From Terriglobia bacterium (GTDB taxonomy: Bacteria; Acidobacteriota; Terriglobia; JAJPHL01; JAPKYU01): 64,000 bases of DNA. Under the pieces are notes generated by a model. It made no database searches, was not told the origin of the DNA, and was given only the letters and a program-made list of their open reading frames with translations. The stretch covers positions 1,088,001-1,152,000 of the forward strand of contig CBDCVK010000010.1 in NCBI GenBank assembly GCA_965223005.1, written 5' to 3'. Shown piece by piece: positions 17,931 to 28,046 of the stretch. Position 1 is the first letter of the stretch, and every line of letters starts with the position of its first letter. The position numbers and the translations under genes are program-made.

Positions 17931-18005
17931 TGGAGCCGACGGGGGGACTTGAACCCCCAACCCCCTGATTACGAATCAGGTGCTCTACCATTGAGCTACA
18001 TCGGC
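17931..18005 (-). tRNA. tRNA-Thr (anticodon CGT)
   Basis: GCCGATG/CGTCGGC acceptor stem, CCTGA-TTCGTAA-TCAGG anticodon arm, GGGGG-TTCAAGT-CCCCC T arm, encoded CCA. Confidence 0.97.
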
Positions 18006-18062
18006 CTTTGTTTCCTTGCGGTTACGAAGAGCTAGCCTGGTTCTGACCCCTTTACCTAACAT

Positions 18063-18745
18063 ATGGAGAACCTATGGCGGCAGTTCGTACAGGAAAGAGT
18101 ATATCTCAACAACGTCAGCCCTAGAACCGCCGAGTGGTACGGATGGGTGGAGAAGGCTTTCTCGCCTTACGTGGGCAAGTTCTGTGCGTCTGATGGGACT
18201 TCCAAAGAGGTCTTGAAGGAAGCCATCATTCGGATGCGGGAGAAGGGCCTGGACCCGGTTACCATCGCCGGCTACATCCGGGGCCTGAACGCCTTCCTCA
18301 GGTGGGGCCACACCGACGGACACTTTAAGGAACTGCTTGTGATTCCAGTTCCCAGGTGTGAACAGAAGCTCGTCTTACCCTTGACTCCCGAGCACGTCCA
18401 GCGGTTTCTCAAATGGAAACCTGTCCACGGTTCACAGCGCCGGACATTTGTCTTGGTTTGCCTTCTCCTCGACACAGGGATGAGGATTTCAGAAGCCATT
18501 GATCTGCGGAGGGCGGACCTGAACCTCGATGACCTGCTTATCAAGGTGAAGGGCAAGGGCGGGAAGCATCGGCAGGTGCCAATGTCATTTGAGTTGCGGA
18601 AGATACTCTTCCGGTATCTTCAGAAGCATCCGTTTGACTTGGTGTTCGCCACGAGGCATGGAACCAGGTTGACCAGGCGCAACGCTACAAGGGACCTCTA
18701 CAAGCTCTGTGACCGGCTAAGAATACCCAGAAGGGGCTTCCATAC
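18063..18745 (+). pseudogene. Tyrosine recombinase/integrase (XerC/D-like), truncated at the HxxR motif
   Basis: LLDTGMRISEA and KGKGGKHRQVP are present. Homology stops at GFHT with no LRH, LGH or catalytic Tyr, and the ORF reads on to 19067 across the antisense of the next gene. Confidence 0.85.
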
Positions 18746-19830
18746 TGGCCTTTTCTTCGACGGTGACGGATTTCACCTGGCAGGCAGAACTGGGAGTGCG
18801 GCTCGAATCAGGCGGTCAGGAATTGGACGCCGCAGGAAAACGCATTCCATCCCGGCAGAGGAACAGCACGCACAATCAAGGAGCGCGTTTCGATCCCACC
18901 GCTATCGGGAAGGCTTGGATCGTAGGGCATCTTCACCCAGACGACTTCGCGAGGGTCGTATTGCCGAGTGCTTTCAAAGCCGATACCACCCTGAGAGACA
19001 TTCACTGGTTCCAGCACTTCCATCTCTGAGCCGGACTCTCGGCGGATGCGAACTCGCGTTTTCATAGCCATCCGGCGGTACCTGCGATGCTCCTTTGTGC
19101 CTACTAGCTCGGTGTCCAACCCTTCTTCAGCCGTAGACACCTCGAAAGAGGGCGCTGCCACGCGTACAGCCACACCTTTGCTCTTGGTTGAGTAATACAA
19201 ACTTGTGAGCATTAGGATCGGCGGAATTCCTGAAACTATCACCATGAACCAAGCCCAAGGAGGGGTGCCGGGTGTCAAGAGATTCTTTCCCCCTCCATCA
19301 GATACTTTTCGGTGATTAAAGCTTTCGACTACAACATGCTGCATGAAACCGCCCATTTGTTCCGTGTGATAGCGGATATGCACTTCACTCCACCAGAGCT
19401 GAGAAAAGTACTCTTCCGCGCTCACTTCAACGTCCTTAGTGAATCCATCAAATCGAAATGTTAAATAATAGCGTGCAGCACCTATTACGGGAGGCCGTGT
19501 GTCTCCGAACTTGGAGAAGACTATACCAGTAGTGCTCTGAGAGGGGGAAACATGCCAGCCGAAAAGAACGAAGAGGCAAACAAGGGTAGCTGTAGTGCTC
19601 GCAAGAACCCCCCAGAATTGCAGCAAATCTAGCTCAGATAAGAAATCATGACCAATGGCGGCAGTTGTAAAAGAGAGGCATAGAAGACCAAGCAGTACAG
19701 CCGCGAGAGCAGACCAGTGGAAGGAAAAAACCAAAGAAAATAAGCCAAATAGGTAAGCAAGGCTCGACCCAGCTACGAATTCCGCAGTCACCAGCACCCA
19801 AAACTGGAAGTCAGAAGCTTTTCCTTCTAG

Positions 19831-21170
19831 CAGGATGCTGAAAAAGTCCCTGGGCGACCTCTTACGAACAAAATATAAATGAGTATAATTGTTCTCATTA
19901 TGCGAGGACACGATCTGCACCAAGACGCGATGTTCAGCTACCTGAGCCCCGAGCAACGGGTGCCCCAGGATCATCCGTTGCGGCCGATACGCCGCATGAC
20001 CGACCAAGCACTGCAACGGCTTTCGCCGCGGTTCGAGCGGATGTATGCTGACATCGGTCGCCCCTCGATCGCCCCGGAGAAGCTGCTGCGGGCCTTGCTG
20101 CTGCAGGTGCTCTACACCATCCGCAGCGAACGGATGCTGCTGGAGCAACTCGATTACAACCTCCTGTTCCGGTGGTTTGTGGGACTGAACATGGATGACG
20201 CGGTGTGGGTGCCGACGGTGTTCAGCAAGAACCGGGACCGGCTGCTGGAGGGGGCCGTCGCCGAGGCATTCTTTGACGAGGTGTTGCGCGAGGCGGGCGA
20301 GCAGGAGTTGCTGTCGGAGGAGCACTTCACGGTGGACGGGACGCTGCTGGAGGCGTGGGCGAGCCAGAAGAGCTTTCAGAGGAAGGACGCGCCGGAGGGG
20401 CCGCCGCCGGAGGATCCGGGCAATCCCACGGTGGACTTCCACAAAGAGAAGCGGACCAACGAAACGCACCAGTCGACGACAGACCCGGACGCTCGGCTGG
20501 CCCGGAAGGGCAAAGGCAAGGAGGCCAAGCTGAGCTACGTCGGGCACGTGCTGATGGAGAACCGCAACGGGCTGGTGGTGAATGTGCGGCTGACCCAGGC
20601 CACCGGCACCGCCGAGCGGGAAGCGGCCGTGGAGATGGTGGACGACATTCCGGGCCCGAAGCAGGTGACGGTGGGTGCCGACAAGAACTACGACGCCGAA
20701 GCGATGGTGCAGCAGTTGCGGGAACGGAAGGCCACGCCGCACGTGGCGCAGAACCAGGAACGGCGGCGCAGTGCCATCGACAGCCGGACCACACGGCACC
20801 CGGGTTACCAGATCAGCCAGAGAGCGCGGAAGAAGGTGGAAGAGAGTTTCGGATGGATGAAGACGGTCGGGTTGCTGCGGAAGCTGCGGCATCGGGGCCT
20901 GGAGCGCGTCGGCTGGATCTTCACCTTTACGGCTGCCGCCTTCAACCTGGTCCGGATTCGCAACTTGGTGATCGGGGCCGTCCCGCCGCGGGTAGTGGGC
21001 CCAGGGGCCGCCTGAGGAGGAGTGTGTCCAAAGGACGAAAAAGGGCTGGGAAAGGCAAAAGACAAGGCCCCAAAGGGCCAATAGCGAGGTTCACTACGAA
21101 CCGAACGGCTCAAAGAAAATTCCCACAGGATAAACGCTACTGAATTTTTTGGCCCTTTTTCAGCACCCTG
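19831..21170 (+). mobile_element. IS5-family insertion sequence, apparently intact
   Basis: IRs CAGGATGCTGAAAAAG / CAGGGTGCTGAAAAAG; CTAG target duplication at 19827-19830 and 21171-21174. Confidence 0.93.
19879..21015 (+). CDS. IS5-family DDE transposase
   Basis: GRPSIAPEKLLRALLLQ, FTVDGTL, VGADKNYD, RKKVEESFGWMK; likely start at 19899 (MRGHD). Confidence 0.93.
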   Translation: MSIIVLIMRGHDLHQDAMFSYLSPEQRVPQDHPLRPIRRMTDQALQRLSPRFERMYADIGRPSIAPEKLLRALLLQVLYTIRSERMLLEQLDYNLLFRWFVGLNMDDAVWVPTVFSKNRDRLLEGAVAEAFFDEVLREAGEQELLSEEHFTVDGTLLEAWASQKSFQRKDAPEGPPPEDPGNPTVDFHKEKRTNETHQSTTDPDARLARKGKGKEAKLSYVGHVLMENRNGLVVNVRLTQATGTAEREAAVEMVDDIPGPKQVTVGADKNYDAEAMVQQLRERKATPHVAQNQERRRSAIDSRTTRHPGYQISQRARKKVEESFGWMKTVGLLRKLRHRGLERVGWIFTFTAAAFNLVRIRNLVIGAVPPRVVGPGAA

Positions 21171-21467
21171 CTAGAGTCTTCATGTTGGTTTCGCTGGCAA
21201 GCTCCTTCAGCTTTCTGCTCGGGGCAGGAACCAGCCGTGGAAACAGTGTCGTTGTACGTCGCGAAACCTTCAAGCAGAGTCATGGACTTGGTTACATCCA
21301 AGACACTTCCTAAGCTCAGTGCTCGAAGCAAGCGAATGCTGAATCTGCTGCTTCAAGACTGACCACCAGGAACGCCCCCGTCACCTTGCTTCCTGACTGG
21401 TGGCCTGGTCTTCTTCGCACCAATTTCTCTTGAAACTCTATCCCAAACAGATTAGGATAAATGTGAA

Positions 21468-21632
21468 ATGACCCAGACTGAACTGAGGCGGTTCACAAGC
21501 TGGCTGGGCAAGCGCAGCTACAAGGTGCGCGTGAAGCGGCTGGGCCTTGAACGCATACAGGAAATTGCTCGCAAGAATGGCAAGCTTGGTGGCAGACCAC
21601 GGGGGAGTGGCAAGAAAGGAAGGAAGCAATGA
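21468..21632 (+). CDS. Small basic protein (54 aa) with a KNGKLGGRP motif
   Basis: Manual translation MTQTELRRFTSWLGKRSYKVRVKRLGLERIQEIARKNGKLGGRPRGSGKKGRKQ; too short for the ORF track. Confidence 0.55.
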   Translation: MTQTELRRFTSWLGKRSYKVRVKRLGLERIQEIARKNGKLGGRPRGSGKKGRKQ

Positions 21633-21792
21633 GGCGCAGACTGCCACGAGGAGTCTTCTTGAGCGGTCAGAGTTCTTCAAGTACTCTTGGGAGCTATTGG
21701 CTATTGAGCCCCTGACAGGACATCCAGGAACACAAAGATGTTCATGGGAAGGGCGCAAAATCAACAGAAATGAGAGAGGAGGGGTTTAGCTC

Positions 21793-21831
21793 GATTACGA
21801 ATCAGGTGCTCTACCATTGAGCTACATCGGC
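21793..21831 (-). repeat. att-type repeat: tRNA-Thr nt 1-39 (orphan 5' half)
   Basis: Exact copy of 17967-18005, ending 2 nt past the anticodon loop. Confidence 0.92.
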
Positions 21832-21840
21832 ACTGAAGTC

Positions 21841-21870
21841 ATCATAGCAGCGCGCCGCAACGGCTGTCCA
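21841..21870 (-). promoter_or_regulatory. Sigma70-like promoter upstream of the orphan tRNA 5' half
   Basis: TGGACA-N18-TATGAT with an extended TG, 9 nt before tRNA position 1. Confidence 0.6.
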
Positions 21871-21904
21871 CGGGCGCACGCTGAGGATCGTCAGCTGGAT
21901 CGGA

Positions 21905-22819
21905 TCAGTGAGGCGAGTCCCAGCGGAGGCCGACCGCATAAGCCATCGCATAGTGGAGCGTGTCATGGAATGCGGGCGACAGGTCGGTAAGTACGCGGCC
22001 GTACCACCGACGAGGTCGGCCAGGAGAGCGAAAGCAAGAGCCAGGCTGCAGCATCACTAGCCGGCCCTTGAAGGGCATCGAGTCGGCGGCGCGAGCGGAT
22101 CCCAGCCTCGGATACTTGACCAGTGTGTTCCACCAGCCGTCGGTCGGATCGCTCTCGTCCGGGACGAAGTGGCTGAGGCTGACGAAGGCGTTTTCGAACG
22201 GGAGCGGTTCCAGCCAGTCACAGGTTTCGGCCGGCCCCAGCAGTTCGAAAGCGCCGCGACCGATCGCGCGGCGCTTTCCGAACCCGGAGCGCCCCAGAGA
22301 GCGCAACAGCACAGCCAGCCGCTCCAGCCACTCCTCCTCGGCGCGGATGTAAAGTGACAGGAAGCGCTCCTCCTGCGGGACCTCAGGGAGCCAGGTGTAC
22401 TCTTCGACTGCAAACGGGACGGGATCAGCGCCGTCACGCGGAATCGACGCGTGCGTGGGGCGCAGGGTAATCCACCAATGCTGCCGCGGCAACGGCAGCG
22501 CGTAGCTCTGCCCCTCCCGGATGGTAACGAACTGCTGGCGCGTGACCCAGCGCGCCGCCTCCCATGTTTTGCCTTCCTCGGGCGCGCCGGCGTTACCGTC
22601 GGGAACCGCACACAGCGGGCGCGGCAGCAGGTCGGCGGGAGCGGCGTCGGAGAGCAAGAAGGGCGGGGGCCCCTGGCGGAACCGTCTGAGCAAGCGGCTG
22701 AGGGCGTTTTCTCCGGCGCTGTGGGCGATTTCCCAACACAGCGCGCCGAACACCGTGTCGGCCTGCCAGGGCGTCGCCCAAGGGGCCAGGGGCCGAAGGC
22801 AGAAGCGCGCCGATTTCAT
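21905..22819 (-). CDS. csm4: Type III-A RAMP Csm4 (Cas5 group)
   Basis: PLAPWATPWQADTVFGALCW, PFLLSDAAP..LPRP, G-loop GFGKRRAIGRGAF, FVSLSHFVP, MLQPGSCF, HYAMAY. Confidence 0.85.
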   Translation of the reverse strand: MKSARFCLRPLAPWATPWQADTVFGALCWEIAHSAGENALSRLLRRFRQGPPPFLLSDAAPADLLPRPLCAVPDGNAGAPEEGKTWEAARWVTRQQFVTIREGQSYALPLPRQHWWITLRPTHASIPRDGADPVPFAVEEYTWLPEVPQEERFLSLYIRAEEEWLERLAVLLRSLGRSGFGKRRAIGRGAFELLGPAETCDWLEPLPFENAFVSLSHFVPDESDPTDGWWNTLVKYPRLGSARAADSMPFKGRLVMLQPGSCFRSPGRPRRWYGRVLTDLSPAFHDTLHYAMAYAVGLRWDSPH

Positions 22820-22898
22820 GCGAGTGAGGCAGGCGGCTGGGCCCGGGCAAACTGACCGCTGTGCCGTAGAGCTTGGCTGGCGGGCAGAGGACGCCGCT

Positions 22899-23567
22899 TC
22901 ATACTGTCACGCTCTCCAGCGTCATCGGGTCCACGCTGATGTTTTCAAAGCGCACTTGGCCGGAGCCCCGGCTGGCGCCGGCGCCCAGCGCTCCAATCTC
23001 TTGAATCAGCCCCAACCCTTTTCGGACAAACTCCAGCATCTTGACCGGCTCATCGCCGTCATAGACGTGAATCAGGATTTCCATCTGGAACTCAGCGTCC
23101 CAAACGCGCTCCTGCCAGCGGGGATGATCGGCGGTCCCTCGGTCGCGATCCACCAGGTTCTCCGCTTTCTCCTCGACGAGCGAGCGGCCGGCAGCCTCCA
23201 ACTCGTGCAGCTTGCGGCCGGACTCGGCCGTCAACGGCGCGTCGCGCACCACGGTGCGGGTGGGAGAGGTTTCGGCCTGAGGCCGCCTGTGGGCGCCGAA
23301 GAGAAGGCACACCAGGCAATCCTTCTGTCCGCAATTGCAGGGGTCGCCGTTGCGGCCCTTTCCCTCCACCTTCTCCAGCATGGCGCGCAGTCGGCCTTTG
23401 AGCGTGGAGCCGGGAATGTAGGGCTCGCCGTTAATGGGATTGCGGATGATAGTGAAGTCAACCAAACCTCCCTCTTCCAGCCAGCTGGGGGGCCCCCCGA
23501 TGCGCAACCCTCCATTGGGGACGCGGATCAACCCGCGCAGGCGCAAGCAGCCAACCAGTTTCTTCAT
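22899..23567 (-). CDS. csm3: Type III-A RAMP Csm3 (Cas7 group)
   Basis: GLRIGG...GGLVDFTIIRNP..GEPYIPGSTLKGRLRAMLE, CNCG..DCLVCLLFG, KAENLVDR, PRWQERV, LGAGASRGSGQV. Confidence 0.93.
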   Translation of the reverse strand: MKKLVGCLRLRGLIRVPNGGLRIGGPPSWLEEGGLVDFTIIRNPINGEPYIPGSTLKGRLRAMLEKVEGKGRNGDPCNCGQKDCLVCLLFGAHRRPQAETSPTRTVVRDAPLTAESGRKLHELEAAGRSLVEEKAENLVDRDRGTADHPRWQERVWDAEFQMEILIHVYDGDEPVKMLEFVRKGLGLIQEIGALGAGASRGSGQVRFENISVDPMTLESVTV

Positions 23568-24340
23568 CGGCGCTCCTTTCTCTGATGCAGCAGGCCCCCG
23601 GCGTAGGCAACTACGGCCTGGAAGTGCTGGGCGAAGGCGAGCAGGGTCTTTTCGTCGGTGACTCGGTCCACGTTGGCCTCCAGGAACTGGCGGAACAACT
23701 CAGGGATCTTGCGGCGCGCCGCGCGCTCGGCGGCAAACGGCTTCAACTTCTGAATCTCGTTCAACACCAGCTCGATCGGCTGACCGCCGAACCTGCAAGA
23801 GGCAACCGCGCGTTTGACGTGGTTGTGAAAGGCGCGCAGCTGGTGTGCCGTAGAGTCCGTTGGAGGCCAGGCAACCCCCTGGGCAATCTGCTCGGCCCAA
23901 CGGGTGATCAGTTCAGAACGCAGCGAGCCCGCCGGCGTGAAGTAGCCGCCTTCCAGGTAGCCGGCCGGCAAGCCGTGAACCGTCTCCGGAGCAATTCCGC
24001 GACCGGGGCCGCGAGCGCGGGTCCGGGTCGCGGGCAGCCGATCGCGGCGGGGCGCGCGCGCTCGCGCGGGCTCTGCGCGGCGCTCGACCGTCTCCGGAGC
24101 CGCGGCTGCAGTCTCGGCCGGTTTTGTGGAGCTGGGCTTCTCAGCGACTTCCCCTGCTTCGGTCGCCGCTTCGGCGGTGCGCTCGGTGCGCACCGCGGCA
24201 ATGCATTCGACGCAGAGCTTGTGTTGTGGCCGCGCCGGGCGGAACATCTTGGCGCAGCGAGCGCAGGCTTTTTCCGCCGGGGGCTCCGGCGGTTCGGACT
24301 TCACGCCCGCCTTACGAAGGGCATCTTCCATACTCCCCAT
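23564..24340 (-). CDS. csm2: Csm2 (Cas11 small subunit) with N-terminal Cys4 zinc ribbon and low-complexity linker
   Basis: C-terminal helical domain with QLRAFHNHVK, LKPFAAERAARRKIP..F..F and FAQHFQAVVAY; sits between cas10 and csm3 with an ATGA overlap; N-terminal CARC...CVEC. Confidence 0.8.
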   Translation of the reverse strand: MGSMEDALRKAGVKSEPPEPPAEKACARCAKMFRPARPQHKLCVECIAAVRTERTAEAATEAGEVAEKPSSTKPAETAAAAPETVERRAEPARARAPRRDRLPATRTRARGPGRGIAPETVHGLPAGYLEGGYFTPAGSLRSELITRWAEQIAQGVAWPPTDSTAHQLRAFHNHVKRAVASCRFGGQPIELVLNEIQKLKPFAAERAARRKIPELFRQFLEANVDRVTDEKTLLAFAQHFQAVVAYAGGLLHQRKERR

Positions 24341-24355
24341 AATCGCAATCCAAGA

Positions 24356-25951
24356 TCAAGTGCCGGCGTCCAAGGATGCGTACGCCACAAGAAATTCTAT
24401 CCACGTCCGGTCGGAATTTTCATCATCCTTTAGCAGGCGGCTAGCCCAGGCCCGCGCCGGGCGATGCTTCACGCGAGGGTCCCGGACCGCCGCGGCCAGC
24501 AGCGGGCGCCCGCGAGCTTCCCCGCTTCGGCTGGAGACGCAGCCTTCGGCCAGGCGGCGCAGCCAGGCCCGGGTGACGGCCCGCCGCTGAAGCCAATCGG
24601 CCAGCGCTCTTGCGGTCTTGAGCAACGAGGCCACCCGCCCCCACTCAATCGCGGTTCCGAAGGCGTACAGACGGTTCCCGCCCGCGTCCTTGGCTTGCCG
24701 CATTGCTTCGGTGGCCAGCTCGACGCCGGCGCGCAGGGTCGCGTGTGGCGGCAACAAGCTCAGGCCGGCCGAAAACGTTAACCCGTCGCCCACGAGTGCC
24801 TGGAAATCCTGCTCGAGACGCAGCGCAAGCTCGAGCGTGTCTTTCCAGGGCCCGATCAGCAGCAGGTCATCGCCGCCGCCAAAGACCGGGAAGACCAGTG
24901 GGAAGTCGCTTTGCAGCAGGTGGTGGAGATGTTCGCCGAAGAAACCATCCAGCAGGCGGCTGAGCGCCACACTCCGCTCCGGATCCCCTGCCAGGGCGGC
25001 GAACGCCAGGGCAGCACGGTCCACGTCAGCGCAAAGATAACCCAGCACGTTCTTGCTGCCTCCGGTCCGATGCGCCAATTCCTCGAGACTGGCCGGATGC
25101 CCATTTGGCGCGGGCAGGCGGCGCAGCAGCGGCCAGGATTCACTATCGAGGCGCAATTGAACTGCAAACGCATCTGCCGGGGGCGAAAACTTCAGACCCA
25201 AGCCTGGGCCGGGCAGGTCGGCTTCCGGCTCCGGGCAAAACCAGGAGCTTTCGATGTCAGGCAGGCGAGCGGCAAGCTCGTGGTCGGCGGCGCAGGCCTT
25301 ACATAAAGTTTCTTCATCCCTAACCTGCACAGAAGTCACGGTGGCGCAGCCGGAACATAGCCCGGTGTCTGCACCGGCAGGCTCAACAAATGCCCGTCCG
25401 TTCCAACGCAAACCGATGCGCAGGGCCCCTTCCAGCGGTTGCCGGCGGCGTTGCCTAAGGCGCTCTGCCAGCTGGTCCCAAGGCAACCGGTCGCCTTCGC
25501 AGATCGCGCCAGCCAAGTGAAGTTCGAGCTCCCCTGCCGGGACCCACTGTTGGAACAACCAAATGTCAAATTCGCGCTGGAGCGATTGAAGAGTCTCTTC
25601 CCATCCTGCCTTGGCGGGCCCCACCAATAAGAATCTGCTCGCGGCACGGAGTAGGCAAACCAGACCCAACCGCTCGGTCAAGCGCCGTGCCAAGAGCTCG
25701 CCGAGCGCTGCCGTGCGGAACGAGCGCGCGCGAAGCCGTTGGGCGGCGGCTCCCGCTGCCGGAGTCGGCCGGATGACATACCGCAGAACGCCGCTCAACG
25801 TCCCTTCGACCACCAGGTTGCCGGCGCGGACCTCCGCAACCGGGGCCACCTCCGCGGGCAGCGAGCCCTCTCCACGCCAAATGGCAGCGAACTGAGGCAA
25901 GCCTCGCTGGACTTCCCCTTCTGCCGTCGCCTGCTCGAGTTCCGGTTCCAT
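24356..25951 (-). CDS. cas10: Cas10/Csm1-like protein lacking the HD nuclease domain
   Basis: Palm1-like GTLSGVLRYV...QRLRARSF; Zn finger CSGC...CKAC; Palm2 GYLCADVD, SRLLDGFF, VFGGGDDLLLIGPW, LTFSAG, AKDAGGN..FG...W; 531 aa. Confidence 0.88.
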   Translation of the reverse strand: MEPELEQATAEGEVQRGLPQFAAIWRGEGSLPAEVAPVAEVRAGNLVVEGTLSGVLRYVIRPTPAAGAAAQRLRARSFRTAALGELLARRLTERLGLVCLLRAASRFLLVGPAKAGWEETLQSLQREFDIWLFQQWVPAGELELHLAGAICEGDRLPWDQLAERLRQRRRQPLEGALRIGLRWNGRAFVEPAGADTGLCSGCATVTSVQVRDEETLCKACAADHELAARLPDIESSWFCPEPEADLPGPGLGLKFSPPADAFAVQLRLDSESWPLLRRLPAPNGHPASLEELAHRTGGSKNVLGYLCADVDRAALAFAALAGDPERSVALSRLLDGFFGEHLHHLLQSDFPLVFPVFGGGDDLLLIGPWKDTLELALRLEQDFQALVGDGLTFSAGLSLLPPHATLRAGVELATEAMRQAKDAGGNRLYAFGTAIEWGRVASLLKTARALADWLQRRAVTRAWLRRLAEGCVSSRSGEARGRPLLAAAVRDPRVKHRPARAWASRLLKDDENSDRTWIEFLVAYASLDAGT

Positions 25952-26149
25952 CTTCCCGGGGGACGATGCGTGTCACGACAGGTGAAAAAGCACTAAGAGC
26001 GGCAGTCTATCCGAGAGACCGGGCTTTGCAAGCCAATTATAATCGTGTCCGAGGACGCATGATGCTGTCCTTCTCGAACTGGCTTTCGAGGCCCAGCGCG
26101 TCTTAACTCAGAGCCAGGTCAGTGCCAGCGACTGTGCCAGCCAGCAGCC

Positions 26150-26803
26150 ATGCCTGAGCTCCGAACCGCCTGGGTGACCTTCGACTGCTACGGCACCCTG
26201 ATTGACTGGGAGTCAGGCATTCAGCAGTTCCTGCGCACCCACCCAGGTCGGGATGACCTGCTGGCGGAATGGGAAGAGATCCAGGTCCGCATGATCCAGG
26301 GTCCTTACCGGCCCTACAAGCAGGTCCTGGCTGACAGCCTTCGTGAGACGCTTCAGGCGCACGGGCTAGAATTTCGGCCGGAACTAAGCGAGGCTTTCAT
26401 TCGCTCGCTCCCCAGGTGGAAGCCATTTTTGGAGACGAATTCTGCGCTTGAGGCTTTGCGGGCCAGGGGGCTTAAGCTCGGCATCATCTCCAACATTGAC
26501 GATGACCTGCTGGCCCAGACAGTAGAACAGTTCACCGTTCGCTTTGACCTGCTAGTGACCGCCCAGCAGGCGGGCGCCTACAAACCGGCCCACGCCGGAT
26601 TTCGGCTGGCGCTGTCGCGGATTGGTCTTCCCGCCCGTCAGGTGACCCACGTGGCCTTTGGCGACCGCTACGACCTGGCCACCGCCCGGGCCTGCGGGAT
26701 GCAAGTAGTTTGCGTGAACCGCCAAGGCAAGGCGTTGGCCACACCCGTCGACGCAGGAGTTCCAGACCTGTCGGGGCTGGAGGAAGTCATCATACGGAGT
26801 TAA
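26150..26803 (+). CDS. HAD-superfamily hydrolase (haloacid dehalogenase type II-like)
   Basis: TFDCYGTLIDWE, ISNID, AYKP, HVAFG..YD. Confidence 0.9.
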   Translation: MPELRTAWVTFDCYGTLIDWESGIQQFLRTHPGRDDLLAEWEEIQVRMIQGPYRPYKQVLADSLRETLQAHGLEFRPELSEAFIRSLPRWKPFLETNSALEALRARGLKLGIISNIDDDLLAQTVEQFTVRFDLLVTAQQAGAYKPAHAGFRLALSRIGLPARQVTHVAFGDRYDLATARACGMQVVCVNRQGKALATPVDAGVPDLSGLEEVIIRS

Positions 26804-26822: not shown

Positions 26823-28046
26823 CTATCCGCTGAGAGCAATGGCCTGAAGGGCACGGACTTCGCCGCTGCGAAATTCGTATTTCTCCAGGCGGGTGGTGTT
26901 GACCCCCTGCTCCACCAGCGCGGGTACGTCCAGCGCCGCTTCGGCGCGGTCCAGTTCTTCCGGGCGGGCGTGCAGGGCCGGAGCGCGCGGCTGAAACAGT
27001 GGGCAGCAGTCCTGGAACGGCTCGGAGGAGATGGCGAAGCTGCCCAGGCGCTCGGCCACTTGCAAGATTTCCAGCTTGTCCTCGCCTATCAGCGGGCGGT
27101 AGACGGGCAGCGTGGCTGCCCGGTCAACAGCCTGCAAGTTGTGCAGGGTTTGTGACGCCACCTGGGCGACGCTGTCGCCGGTGATCAGGCCCAGGGCGTG
27201 CTCGCGGCGGGCCAGACGCTCGGCGATCCGCAGCATCATGCGGCGGTAGAGCAGAATGCGATAGGGCTCCGGCGCGGCGGTCACGATCTGCCGCTGGATG
27301 GGCTCGAAGGGCACCAGGTAGAGGCGCGCCGTGAACTGGTAGGGGGCCAGAAGCCGTACCAGCTCCTGCACGACGGGGGCGGAGGATTCACCCGGCCGCG
27401 AGGGGAGCGCGTGAAAGTGAGTAAACACCACGTGCACGCCCCGCTTCATCATTTTGTAGGCGGCCACCGCGGAGTCGTAGCCACCCGAAAGCAGGCACAC
27501 CAGCCGGCCCGCGGTGTTGGCCGGCATGCCTCCTGGGCCGGGCAGCTTCTCGCTATAGATGAGCGCCGAACCGGCGGTGATCTCCACAAAGCAGGTGAGC
27601 CCTGGGCGGCTCAGGTTGACGCGAGCGCCGGGATGGCCGGCGGCCCGCAGGCGATCCAGCAGGTACTGCCCCGCCAGACGCTCCATCTCCGAGGTGCCAA
27701 GGGGGAAGGACTTGTCGGCGCGCTTGACGCGTACGGCAAAGCTTTCAAACCCACGCCCGCCAACCTCTTCCCAGGCCGCGGCGCAGATTGGTTCCGGGTC
27801 GGCCTCCACGCGCCGGGCGACCGCGAAATAGACCAGGCCAAACACGCGCCCGAGCCGCGCGACGGCAATTTCCACCGATGCATCTTCCAGAAGGTCAACC
27901 AGGATGCGGCTGTGGGCGATCCGCGCGTGATGCGGAAGCGGATCCAGGCTCTGCCGGACGGCGATCAATAACTTGCCCAGGAAGAAGTTGCGGTTCCCTC
28001 CCTTCAGCCACAACTCGTGAAAGTGCAGGACCAGAGTGCGCGTCAT
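26823..28046 (-). CDS. thiI: tRNA 4-thiouridine(8) synthase ThiI (short form, no rhodanese domain)
   Basis: ELWLKGGNR, THUMP domain, LLSGGYDS PP-loop, GDSVAQVASQTL, DCC. Confidence 0.93.
   Translation of the reverse strand: MTRTLVLHFHELWLKGGNRNFFLGKLLIAVRQSLDPLPHHARIAHSRILVDLLEDASVEIAVARLGRVFGLVYFAVARRVEADPEPICAAAWEEVGGRGFESFAVRVKRADKSFPLGTSEMERLAGQYLLDRLRAAGHPGARVNLSRPGLTCFVEITAGSALIYSEKLPGPGGMPANTAGRLVCLLSGGYDSAVAAYKMMKRGVHVVFTHFHALPSRPGESSAPVVQELVRLLAPYQFTARLYLVPFEPIQRQIVTAAPEPYRILLYRRMMLRIAERLARREHALGLITGDSVAQVASQTLHNLQAVDRAATLPVYRPLIGEDKLEILQVAERLGSFAISSEPFQDCCPLFQPRAPALHARPEELDRAEAALDVPALVEQGVNTTRLEKYEFRSGEVRALQAIALSG

Follow-up and report, generated by a model that had tools for sequence, protein, structure and literature searches.

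A dispersed and reduced type III-A csm lineage with a candidate fixed guide RNA in one order of Terriglobia

What guides a type III effector complex, and what does it still do, when its genes stand without a repeat-spacer array? The question is raised by four csm genes in a 64,000-nucleotide stretch of a Terriglobia bacterium genome (assembly GCA_965223005.1, contig CBDCVK010000010.1, positions 1,088,001 to 1,152,000), which we call the window and which is G000:C10:1088001-1152000 in our numbering. An earlier note on this DNA had taken the four genes for an orphan minimal operon of a clustered regularly interspaced short palindromic repeat (CRISPR) system of type III-A. As a rule, type III systems are mobile defence islands of patchy distribution whose action depends on Cas10 signalling. 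The present lineage departs from this: nearly every genome of the order has the effector, which is passed on vertically, with the DNase lost, the cyclase drifting and the RNA-cutting site kept. On balance, we favor the view that the genes belong to a dispersed, reduced derivative of type III-A that would use a fixed CRISPR RNA (crRNA)-like guide and cut RNA without Cas10 signalling.

The genome in question, G000, is a 3.24-Mb assembly of 10 contigs that is 96.3% complete. It was set against its order (11 genomes in seven genera and two families, f1 and a second family that includes G007 and G008) and against the class Terriglobia (401 genomes), using Pfam, NCBIfam, PADLOC, Rfam, ARAGORN, TRF, k-mer array scans, tblastn, blastn-short and a covariance model. 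G001 and G003 share the genus of G000, g1.

Four co-oriented open reading frames (ORFs) without internal stops lie on the minus strand of the window: cas10/csm1 (24356-25951, 531 aa), csm2/cas11 (23564-24340, 258 aa), csm3/cas7 (22899-23567, 222 aa) and csm4/cas5 (21905-22819, 304 aa). The coordinates, shared orientation, families, csm1-2-3-4 order and freedom from frameshifts given in the earlier note all stand. Each protein exceeds its curated NCBIfam III-A cut-off, with 201.2 bits for Cas10 (TIGR02578, cut-off 170), 35 bits for Csm2 (TIGR01870, 30.6), 133 bits for Csm3 (TIGR02582, 90) and 90.9 bits for Csm4 (TIGR01903, 55). Pfam and PADLOC agree, with PF22335 and PF18211 on Cas10, PF03750 on Csm2 (42.2 bits) and a full-length PADLOC match on Csm4 (PDLC01494, 193.8 bits). 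We regard it as practically certain that the four genes form the effector module of a type III-A lineage.

The module is nevertheless a reduced one. Cas10 consists of palm1, a CxxC...CxxC zinc finger, a palm2 (76.6 bits with PF22335) bearing the DVD and GGGDD motifs, and a C-terminal helical domain. No HD nuclease domain was found on it: the TIGR02578 alignment spans only model positions 230-689 of 753, and palm1 is preceded by just 45 residues, compared with 208-261 in four canonical Cas10 proteins. Upstream of cas10 there is only a 198-bp intergenic region, followed by a divergent HAD gene. HD-less Cas10 proteins as such are known. In Csm2, the conserved domain occupies residues 145-246 by PF03750, the TIGR01870 match being confined to residues 164-247, and an extra N-terminus holds a CxxC...CxxC zinc ribbon and a low-complexity linker of about 100 aa. 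The zinc-ribbon N-terminus also occurs in the distant orthologue of G123, a genome from another family.

The components that would ordinarily surround such a module are missing as far as they were searched for. TRF returned no array in the window (20 rows, all with a period of at most 21 and fewer than 6 copies), and k-mer scans for at least three copies, or for two copies, detected none in the whole G000 assembly, although at 96.3% completeness in 10 contigs some repeats may have gone unassembled. Genome-wide, the best Cas1 match in G000 reached 11.8 bits, below the cut-off (Cas2 was not searched), Cas6 of the PF01881 family had no match, and Csm5 (TIGR01899, cut-off 38.3 bits) gave only sub-threshold matches of 18-19 bits, all of them on csm3, in five of five genomes. 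The RAMP family matches once per genome, which in G000 means csm3 only. These searches bear out the earlier statement that the 64 kb contain no array, Cas1, Cas6 (in the PF01881 sense) or Csm5. The scan for cyclic-oligoadenylate sensors and effectors, which was not exhaustive, combined Pfam families with a tblastn query. SAVED (PF18145) and Csx1_HEPN (PF09455) had no match anywhere in G000, other CARF families not being searched, and the CARF-TM effector of G123 as query found nothing in any of the 11 order genomes.

Despite these gaps, the module has been kept. Cas10 is present (E<=1e-20) in 10 of the 11 order genomes and in six of the seven genera, and the single genome without a match is 72% complete. 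Across the class, at E<=1e-10, 36 of 401 genomes have a match, and strong matches outside the order are confined to G123, G262 and G196. The order cas10-csm2-csm3-csm4 is the same in the loci of six relatives, all of those long enough to display it, while two more contigs end within the module. Against G001, G003 and G005, the ratio of nonsynonymous to synonymous substitution rates (dN/dS) of the four genes lies at 0.10-0.32, at dS up to 1.5; the neighboring thiI and carboxyltransferase genes give 0.05-0.12. This comparison of synteny and dN/dS among relatives, which had been proposed as a check, shows that the module is under purifying selection and retained order-wide. The csm lineage is inherited vertically in one Terriglobia order. 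The verdict that the locus is not plain decay holds at the level of the lineage, although one of the two arguments offered for it proved weak, as described below. Beside this lineage, the class also contains a second, more distant Cas10-like family with short frames of about 470-520 aa next to a Csm3-like gene, found in 22 of 70 genomes of family f7; among three loci of this type (L057-L059, from G023, G290 and G386), L058 and L059 also show runs of short-period repeats.

The two catalytic sites of the complex have fared differently. Csm3 Asp37, at the RNase site, aligns with D33 of Streptococcus thermophilus Csm3 (6ifn_F), the residue whose replacement in StCsm3 D33A is reported to abolish RNA cleavage (PMC6461802). 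Asp37 is invariant in seven of seven orthologues from both families, so that the earlier argument from a retained catalytic Asp is sound. Its companion argument, from a retained Cas10 GGDD, is weak. Both palm2 motifs (DVD and GGGDD) are indeed intact in G000 and likewise in G001, and GGDD is also kept in G006 and G009, but it is replaced in G003, G005, G007, G008 and G010, that is, in five of nine order orthologues. Even within the genus, G003 reads GGSNA at this site, and the motif is missing from most close database homologues of Cas10; in the wider clade of HD-less Cas10 proteins it is kept in 12 of 13 representatives. The scattered pattern implies several independent losses and, with them, a relaxed constraint on the cyclase while Cas10 as a whole remains constrained. 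The lack of a CARF_TM match in the order fits a drifting cyclase.

The search for partners of the module leads away from the window. With Cas6 of G123 as query, tblastn finds a cas6 homologue about 405 kb from the module, beside rpoD, as two pieces on the same contig (G000:C10 700986-701453, 48% identity, and 704190-704591, 44% identity), the C-terminal piece scoring 44 bits on PF10040; together with the crRNA-like gene described below, this locus spans G000:C10:700986-704788. In G001 and G003, cas6 is intact, stands in a shared context of acyl-CoA dehydrogenase, cas6, rpoD and dnaG, scores 239.5 bits with PADLOC Cas6 and evolves at a dN/dS of 0.15. We found cas6 in 9 of the 11 order genomes; in six of these (G003, G005, G006, G007, G008 and G010) it and the module are on separate contigs. 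The csm module thus very probably belongs to a dispersed system with an unlinked cas6. Genome-wide, the designation as an orphan does not hold, given a cas6 of matching lineage 44-48% identical to that of G123, and the case illustrates that orphan calls made from a 64-kb window can err, the partners in this instance being 400 kb distant.

Directly 3' of the cas6 stop codon in G000, G001 and G003, we found a -10-like box (TATAAT), one repeat-like unit, a conserved stretch and a hairpin. The solitary repeat reads CCCC-GAAGAAGA-GGGG-ACTGAAnT, with the general form CCCC-N8-GGGG-ACYGAAnT, and closely resembles the 3' half of the G123 array repeat. It is followed by a spacer-like conserved sequence of about 27-34 nt and then by a 19-bp hairpin with a variable loop. 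The repeat core occurs once per genome, with an exact 21/21 match in G000, G001 and G003, and is single-copy in all four element-bearing genomes where the repeat-core search found it. A 25-nt core of guide and hairpin, TGACTTTGGATTGnnTCCAACGCGC, recurs without a mismatch in 5 of the 11 order genomes, which represent three genera, all in family f1. In these five the element adjoins cas6 and/or rpoD; in G004 the element and cas6 share a strand and are 2.6 kb apart, and in G006 the element abuts the rpoD stop codon and has no adjacent cas6. Between genera, 54-60 of 70-72 positions of the element are identical, although Cas10 is only about 50% identical. In the repeat hairpin the loop varies while the stem and the tag are kept. 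Over the structure of the element, 97.3% of the pair cells are paired, compared with 33-49% in slid controls, and two pairs are compensatory. Low-depth contigs from RNA libraries of two studies (X1, X3) overlap the element, which is a weak hint only; the interval between rpoD and the element (L061 10840-10933) has no RNA contig, a result that cannot speak to the transcript end or to read-through.

A single repeat-derived, crRNA-like element after cas6 argues that the candidate guide is CRISPR-derived. Of the two options raised before, a satellite module served in trans and a complex with a non-CRISPR guide, the former is right insofar as parts are supplied in trans, whereas the latter loses to a candidate guide of CRISPR origin. 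We think it somewhat probable that the solitary-repeat RNA is the guide of the csm complex.

Further searches for the element were largely empty. Rfam has no match on it, and a covariance model (R1) run over 151 class genomes recovered only its five training sequences and weak matches to the G123 array, and thus adds no independent instance. By visual inspection, no repeat-like unit follows cas6 in G005, G010, G262 or G196, and the one in G007 is doubtful. In G008, of the second family, an unlinked cas6 paralogue is immediately followed by a pair of CCCC-N6-GGGG hairpins with a spacing of about 63 nt (L075, about 9400-9310, minus strand), and this pair may be a mini-array.

Several observations weigh against a functional fixed guide. 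The element always follows closely on rpoD, in the opposite orientation, and its hairpin could simply be a terminator. Covariation is thin, since there are five sequences and 42 of 500 shuffles score at least as high. The RNA data are contigs without transcript ends, and both transcription from the -10 box and processing by Cas6 are inferred only. For the 33-nt guide, G000 offers one complementary site at up to 10 mismatches, about the chance expectation, and blastn-short finds self-matches of at most 15 nt; pattern scans of viral contigs (20 nt) and metagenome contigs (25 nt) gave no hits, although these required exact matches and are weak negatives. The element was found neither in G005, which is 94% complete, nor in four of four genomes of the second family, all of which keep the module. 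There is also damage to account for. Compared with G001, cas6 of G000 is cleanly interrupted by 2718 bp of inserted DNA, the junction showing an overlap of 11 bp. The insert (G000:C10:701446-704163) encodes a DDE_Tnp_1_4 transposase and a TIM-barrel protein resembling xylose isomerase, and has a second copy at C10:1171425-1174142, about 19 kb past the end of the window, with partial copies on other contigs. As the second copy is 99.96% identical, the disruption is recent. The repeat hairpin of G000 has moreover lost two C, a 2-nt deletion relative to G001 and G003, and with its split cas6 and shortened hairpin the G000 copy of the system may already be impaired. Elsewhere, csm3 of G008 and csm4 of G005 show apparent frameshifts, which may be assembly errors of these metagenome-assembled genomes. 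In csm4, nonsynonymous to synonymous changes (N:S) number 10:14 on the G000 branch compared with 2:15 on the sister branch (Fisher p=0.08).

With these reservations, the fixed-guide reading can be laid out as a sequence of steps. The solitary-repeat transcript would start at its own -10 box, and Cas6 would cut it after the CCCC-N8-GGGG hairpin, so that the product would consist of the 8-nt tag ACYGAAnU, about 27-34 nt of fixed guide and the 3' hairpin. Csm4 and Cas10 would then hold the tag, with Csm3 and Csm2 lining the guide. In this scenario, the Cas10(ΔHD)-Csm2-Csm3-Csm4 complex binds complementary RNA, which Csm3 would cut through Asp37. Cas10 would serve mainly as a scaffold, having no DNase activity and a capacity for cyclic-oligoadenylate signalling that is presumably no longer maintained in the order. 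The whole may act as a hard-wired RNA-targeting device, either regulatory or as a fixed defence.

The regulatory variant can be taken further. A type III complex could have been domesticated as a host gene-regulatory ribonuclease with a single hard-wired guide. As the guide gene is convergent to rpoD, the sole RNA certain to be fully complementary to its product, anti-tag included, would be read-through from the 3' end of the sigma-70 mRNA. Full pairing of tag and anti-tag would silence Cas10, and HD loss and cyclase drift would follow while the Csm3 site, Cas6 and the guide stayed under selection. We regard this extension as speculative and rather improbable.

Could the system instead be dead, at least in G000, with csm genes that look intact only since the loss is recent? 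Much of the damage would suit a decay remnant: a cas6 split by a recent 2718-bp mobile insert, the 2-nt deletion in the repeat hairpin, GGDD lost in five of nine orthologues, frameshifts in G008 csm3 and G005 csm4, Cas1 present in G001 and G003 only as fragments, and neither an array nor an effector found in G000. For all csm genes together, N:S is 21:50 on the G000 branch and 11:47 on the G001 branch, and the difference is not significant (p=0.22), so that we rejected relaxed selection on the G000 branch. Set against decay are also a module found in 10 of 11 genomes and six of seven genera, dN/dS values of 0.10-0.32 at dS up to 1.5, sister-genome cas6 genes at 0.15, a crRNA-like element conserved across genera, and the possibility that the frameshifts are assembly errors. 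We consider decay unlikely. The Cas1-like fragments themselves are short (77-aa open frames) and lie at G001:C3:432293-432415 and at G003:C2:1262196-1262321 and 1601762-1601887; the identical scores of the two in G003 suggest remnants inside a repeated element.

Two other explanations leave the complex active and dispense with the solitary repeat. It might load ordinary crRNAs from the arrays of another system in the same cell; Makarova 2025 (PMC12669027) describes type III loci that lack an array as common, and in the second family G007 and G008 have Cas1 elsewhere, while G008 has an additional cas6 paralogue close to an array of about 14 repeats. In G000, by contrast, neither k-mer scan found an array, no Cas1 reaches the cut-off, and the matching repeat is present in only one copy, as it is in G001 and G003, which makes a satellite role very unlikely. 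Alternatively, an active G000 Cas10 cyclase might signal to an effector that we did not recognise, or the complex might bind cellular RNAs without any dedicated guide. G000 and G001 retain both palm2 motifs, variable same-strand genes lie between csm3 and csm4 in G003 (kinase/TPR) and G001 (ankyrin/DUF2059), and in G007 and G008 csm4 is followed by a LuxR-type response regulator, any of which might hint at signalling. The inserted genes, however, differ between genomes and are absent in G000, which also lacks a SAVED, Csx1_HEPN or CARF-TM-query match; with GGSNA in G003 and the motif lost in five of nine orthologues, the cyclase is not what selection maintains. We find this explanation rather improbable.

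The surroundings of the module show where it has varied. Between csm3 and csm4, the window has a gap of 79 bp (22820-22898). In the same position G003 carries a same-strand gene for an 832-aa Ser/Thr kinase with TPR repeats (L016:12647-15145) and G001 one for a 387-aa ankyrin/DUF2059 protein (L015:7317-8480), and the operon seems to have a hotspot here at which cargo genes are inserted. The LuxR-type regulator genes of the second family lie 3' of csm4 in both genomes examined (G007, L018:13736-14428; G008, L017:5830-6546).

Upstream, a block at 25952-26047 on the minus strand contains a -35 box TTGCAA (26031-26026), a -10 box TAGACT (26009-26004) and an upstream CGATTATAATT motif. Its 96 nt are nearly invariant across G000, G001 and G003, and only the promoter motifs recur in two other genera. 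Reading its hexamers, we infer a promoter plus 5' untranslated region of the csm operon. A guide RNA encoded in this 5' region was considered and rejected, as there is no fold signal (z = +0.83) and only promoter motifs are shared across genera. Beyond the block lie the HAD hydrolase gene (26150-26803, plus strand) and thiI (26823-28046, minus strand), both identified by Pfam; synteny extends to thiI and the carboxyltransferase gene in G001 and G003 and to HAD and thiI in G006.

On the other side of the module, an outer att copy (21793-21871, minus strand) preserves the promoter of the original tRNA-Thr(CGT) together with its first 39 nt. These flanks, HAD and thiI on one side and a tRNA promoter on the other, are as first described. 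The 39 nt (21793-21831) are a perfect direct repeat of 17967-18005, within the intact tRNA-Thr(CGT) at 17931-18005 on the minus strand (ARAGORN; Rfam RF00005, 74.5 bits). Between the two repeats sits an integrated island of 3.8 kb (18006-21792), not part of the csm system, with an integrase gene (18063-19067, plus strand) and a DDE transposase gene (19879-21015, plus strand); its Pfam matches are PF00589, PF05598 and PF01609. A 757-aa frame on the minus strand (18808-21081), with a C-terminal PilZ match of 32 bits, runs antisense to the integrase and transposase ORFs and is probably spurious for the most part. The island is absent from G001 and G003, where an intact tRNA-Thr directly follows csm4, which marks it as a later insertion irrelevant to the module. 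A guide RNA from the adjacent tRNA-Thr was likewise rejected, since the tRNA follows csm4 only in genus g1 and the loci of other genera have no nearby tRNA. In the window from 17 to 27 kb, Rfam matched tRNA only.

How does this lineage compare with systems already described? We did not find it in the literature searched, which included passages of PMC12669027 that make no mention of Acidobacteria, a paper whose supplements may list such loci; a 49-aa query against PDB sequences gave no match. If the fixed guide is real, this would be the first report of a conserved crRNA-like guide from a derivative of type III. Such a system would represent a natural CRISPR exaptation to a fixed RNA target and would provide a compact, programmable complex of four proteins that cleaves RNA with no collateral signalling.

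One point of reference is G123, whose locus unites cas6, the four csm genes, a CARF-TM effector gene and an array. Its module is orthologous to that of the window (33% identity in Cas10, 50% in Csm3, 40% in Csm4); the two share the same Cas6 family, the zinc-ribbon Csm2, a similar 3' half of the repeat, and the lack of both HD and Csm5. Cas6 of G123 scores 53.6 bits on PF10040 and 268.7 bits with PADLOC Cas6. The 257-aa CARF_TM effector scores 107.8 bits with PADLOC and presumably resembles Cam1. The array is built of GTTGAAGAGGCATCCCCGACGAAGAGGGGACTGAAAC, repeated about 28 times at a period of 72-75 nt; it is split into sub-arrays (L054:14526-16892), contains several variants of the repeat as well as gaps of 134-363 nt, and looks old or recombining. 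A linked cas6, the array of about 28 repeats, the intact GGDD and the effector gene set G123 apart, these features being lost or scattered in the order of the window. The evidence fits a course in which, relative to the G123 form, the order lost the array and the CARF effector and separated cas6, while f1 kept a single repeat-spacer unit. The earlier note had argued that relatives with the same locus carrying csm5, cas6 and an array would expose a recent deletion remnant. In G123 such a locus exists in part, but the separation is old and not a recent deletion.

With canonical III-A systems (Staphylococcus epidermidis, S. thermophilus, Thermococcus onnurineus; PDB 6ifn, 6iqw, 7uzw) the lineage shares the Cas10-Csm2-Csm3-Csm4 order, the aligned Csm3 Asp, and a repeat hairpin with an 8-nt tag, and a Cas6, split in G000, belongs to it. 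Unlike them, it has no HD, no Csm5, a cyclase motif that is not maintained and, among the families searched, no Cas1 or Csm6/CARF match; its cas6 is unlinked, a solitary repeat stands in place of the array, and Csm2 has a zinc ribbon. Defence systems are furthermore usually patchy, whereas this lineage is vertical and near-universal in its order. Subtypes III-F, III-G and III-H, as characterized in Makarova 2025 (PMC12669027), have an inactive palm, an apparently active HD, no catalytic Asp in Cas7 and a predicted activity of DNA cutting. On that description, they resemble the lineage in their reductive evolution, in an inactivated or unmaintained palm, in the lack of cyclic-oligoadenylate sensors and adaptation genes and often of an array. 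The system of the window is nonetheless their opposite, with no HD and a conserved Cas7 Asp, and it sits within the III-A profiles.

A different parallel is offered by small RNAs. In five genomes from three genera, the repeat unit is conserved in position and sequence, as befits a regulatory crRNA-like RNA; a host target, the other hallmark, did not emerge, as no G000 site stands above chance. CreA/CreTA and scaRNA are crRNA-like regulators that derive from standalone repeats. Together with the mini-arrays of Shmakov 2023 (bioRxiv 10.1101/2023.03.03.530964), they share with our element a solitary or degenerate repeat, a conserved spacer, conservation among related genomes and a position beside a cas gene. 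They differ in that the known ones belong to types I, II and V-A and act on DNA promoters through partial matches. For type III, the 2023 survey reports no conserved mini-arrays and judges those it found to be degraded. Measured against all these systems, the lineage is a variant of III-A with a candidate fixed guide, and the orphan reading of the window was only partly right.

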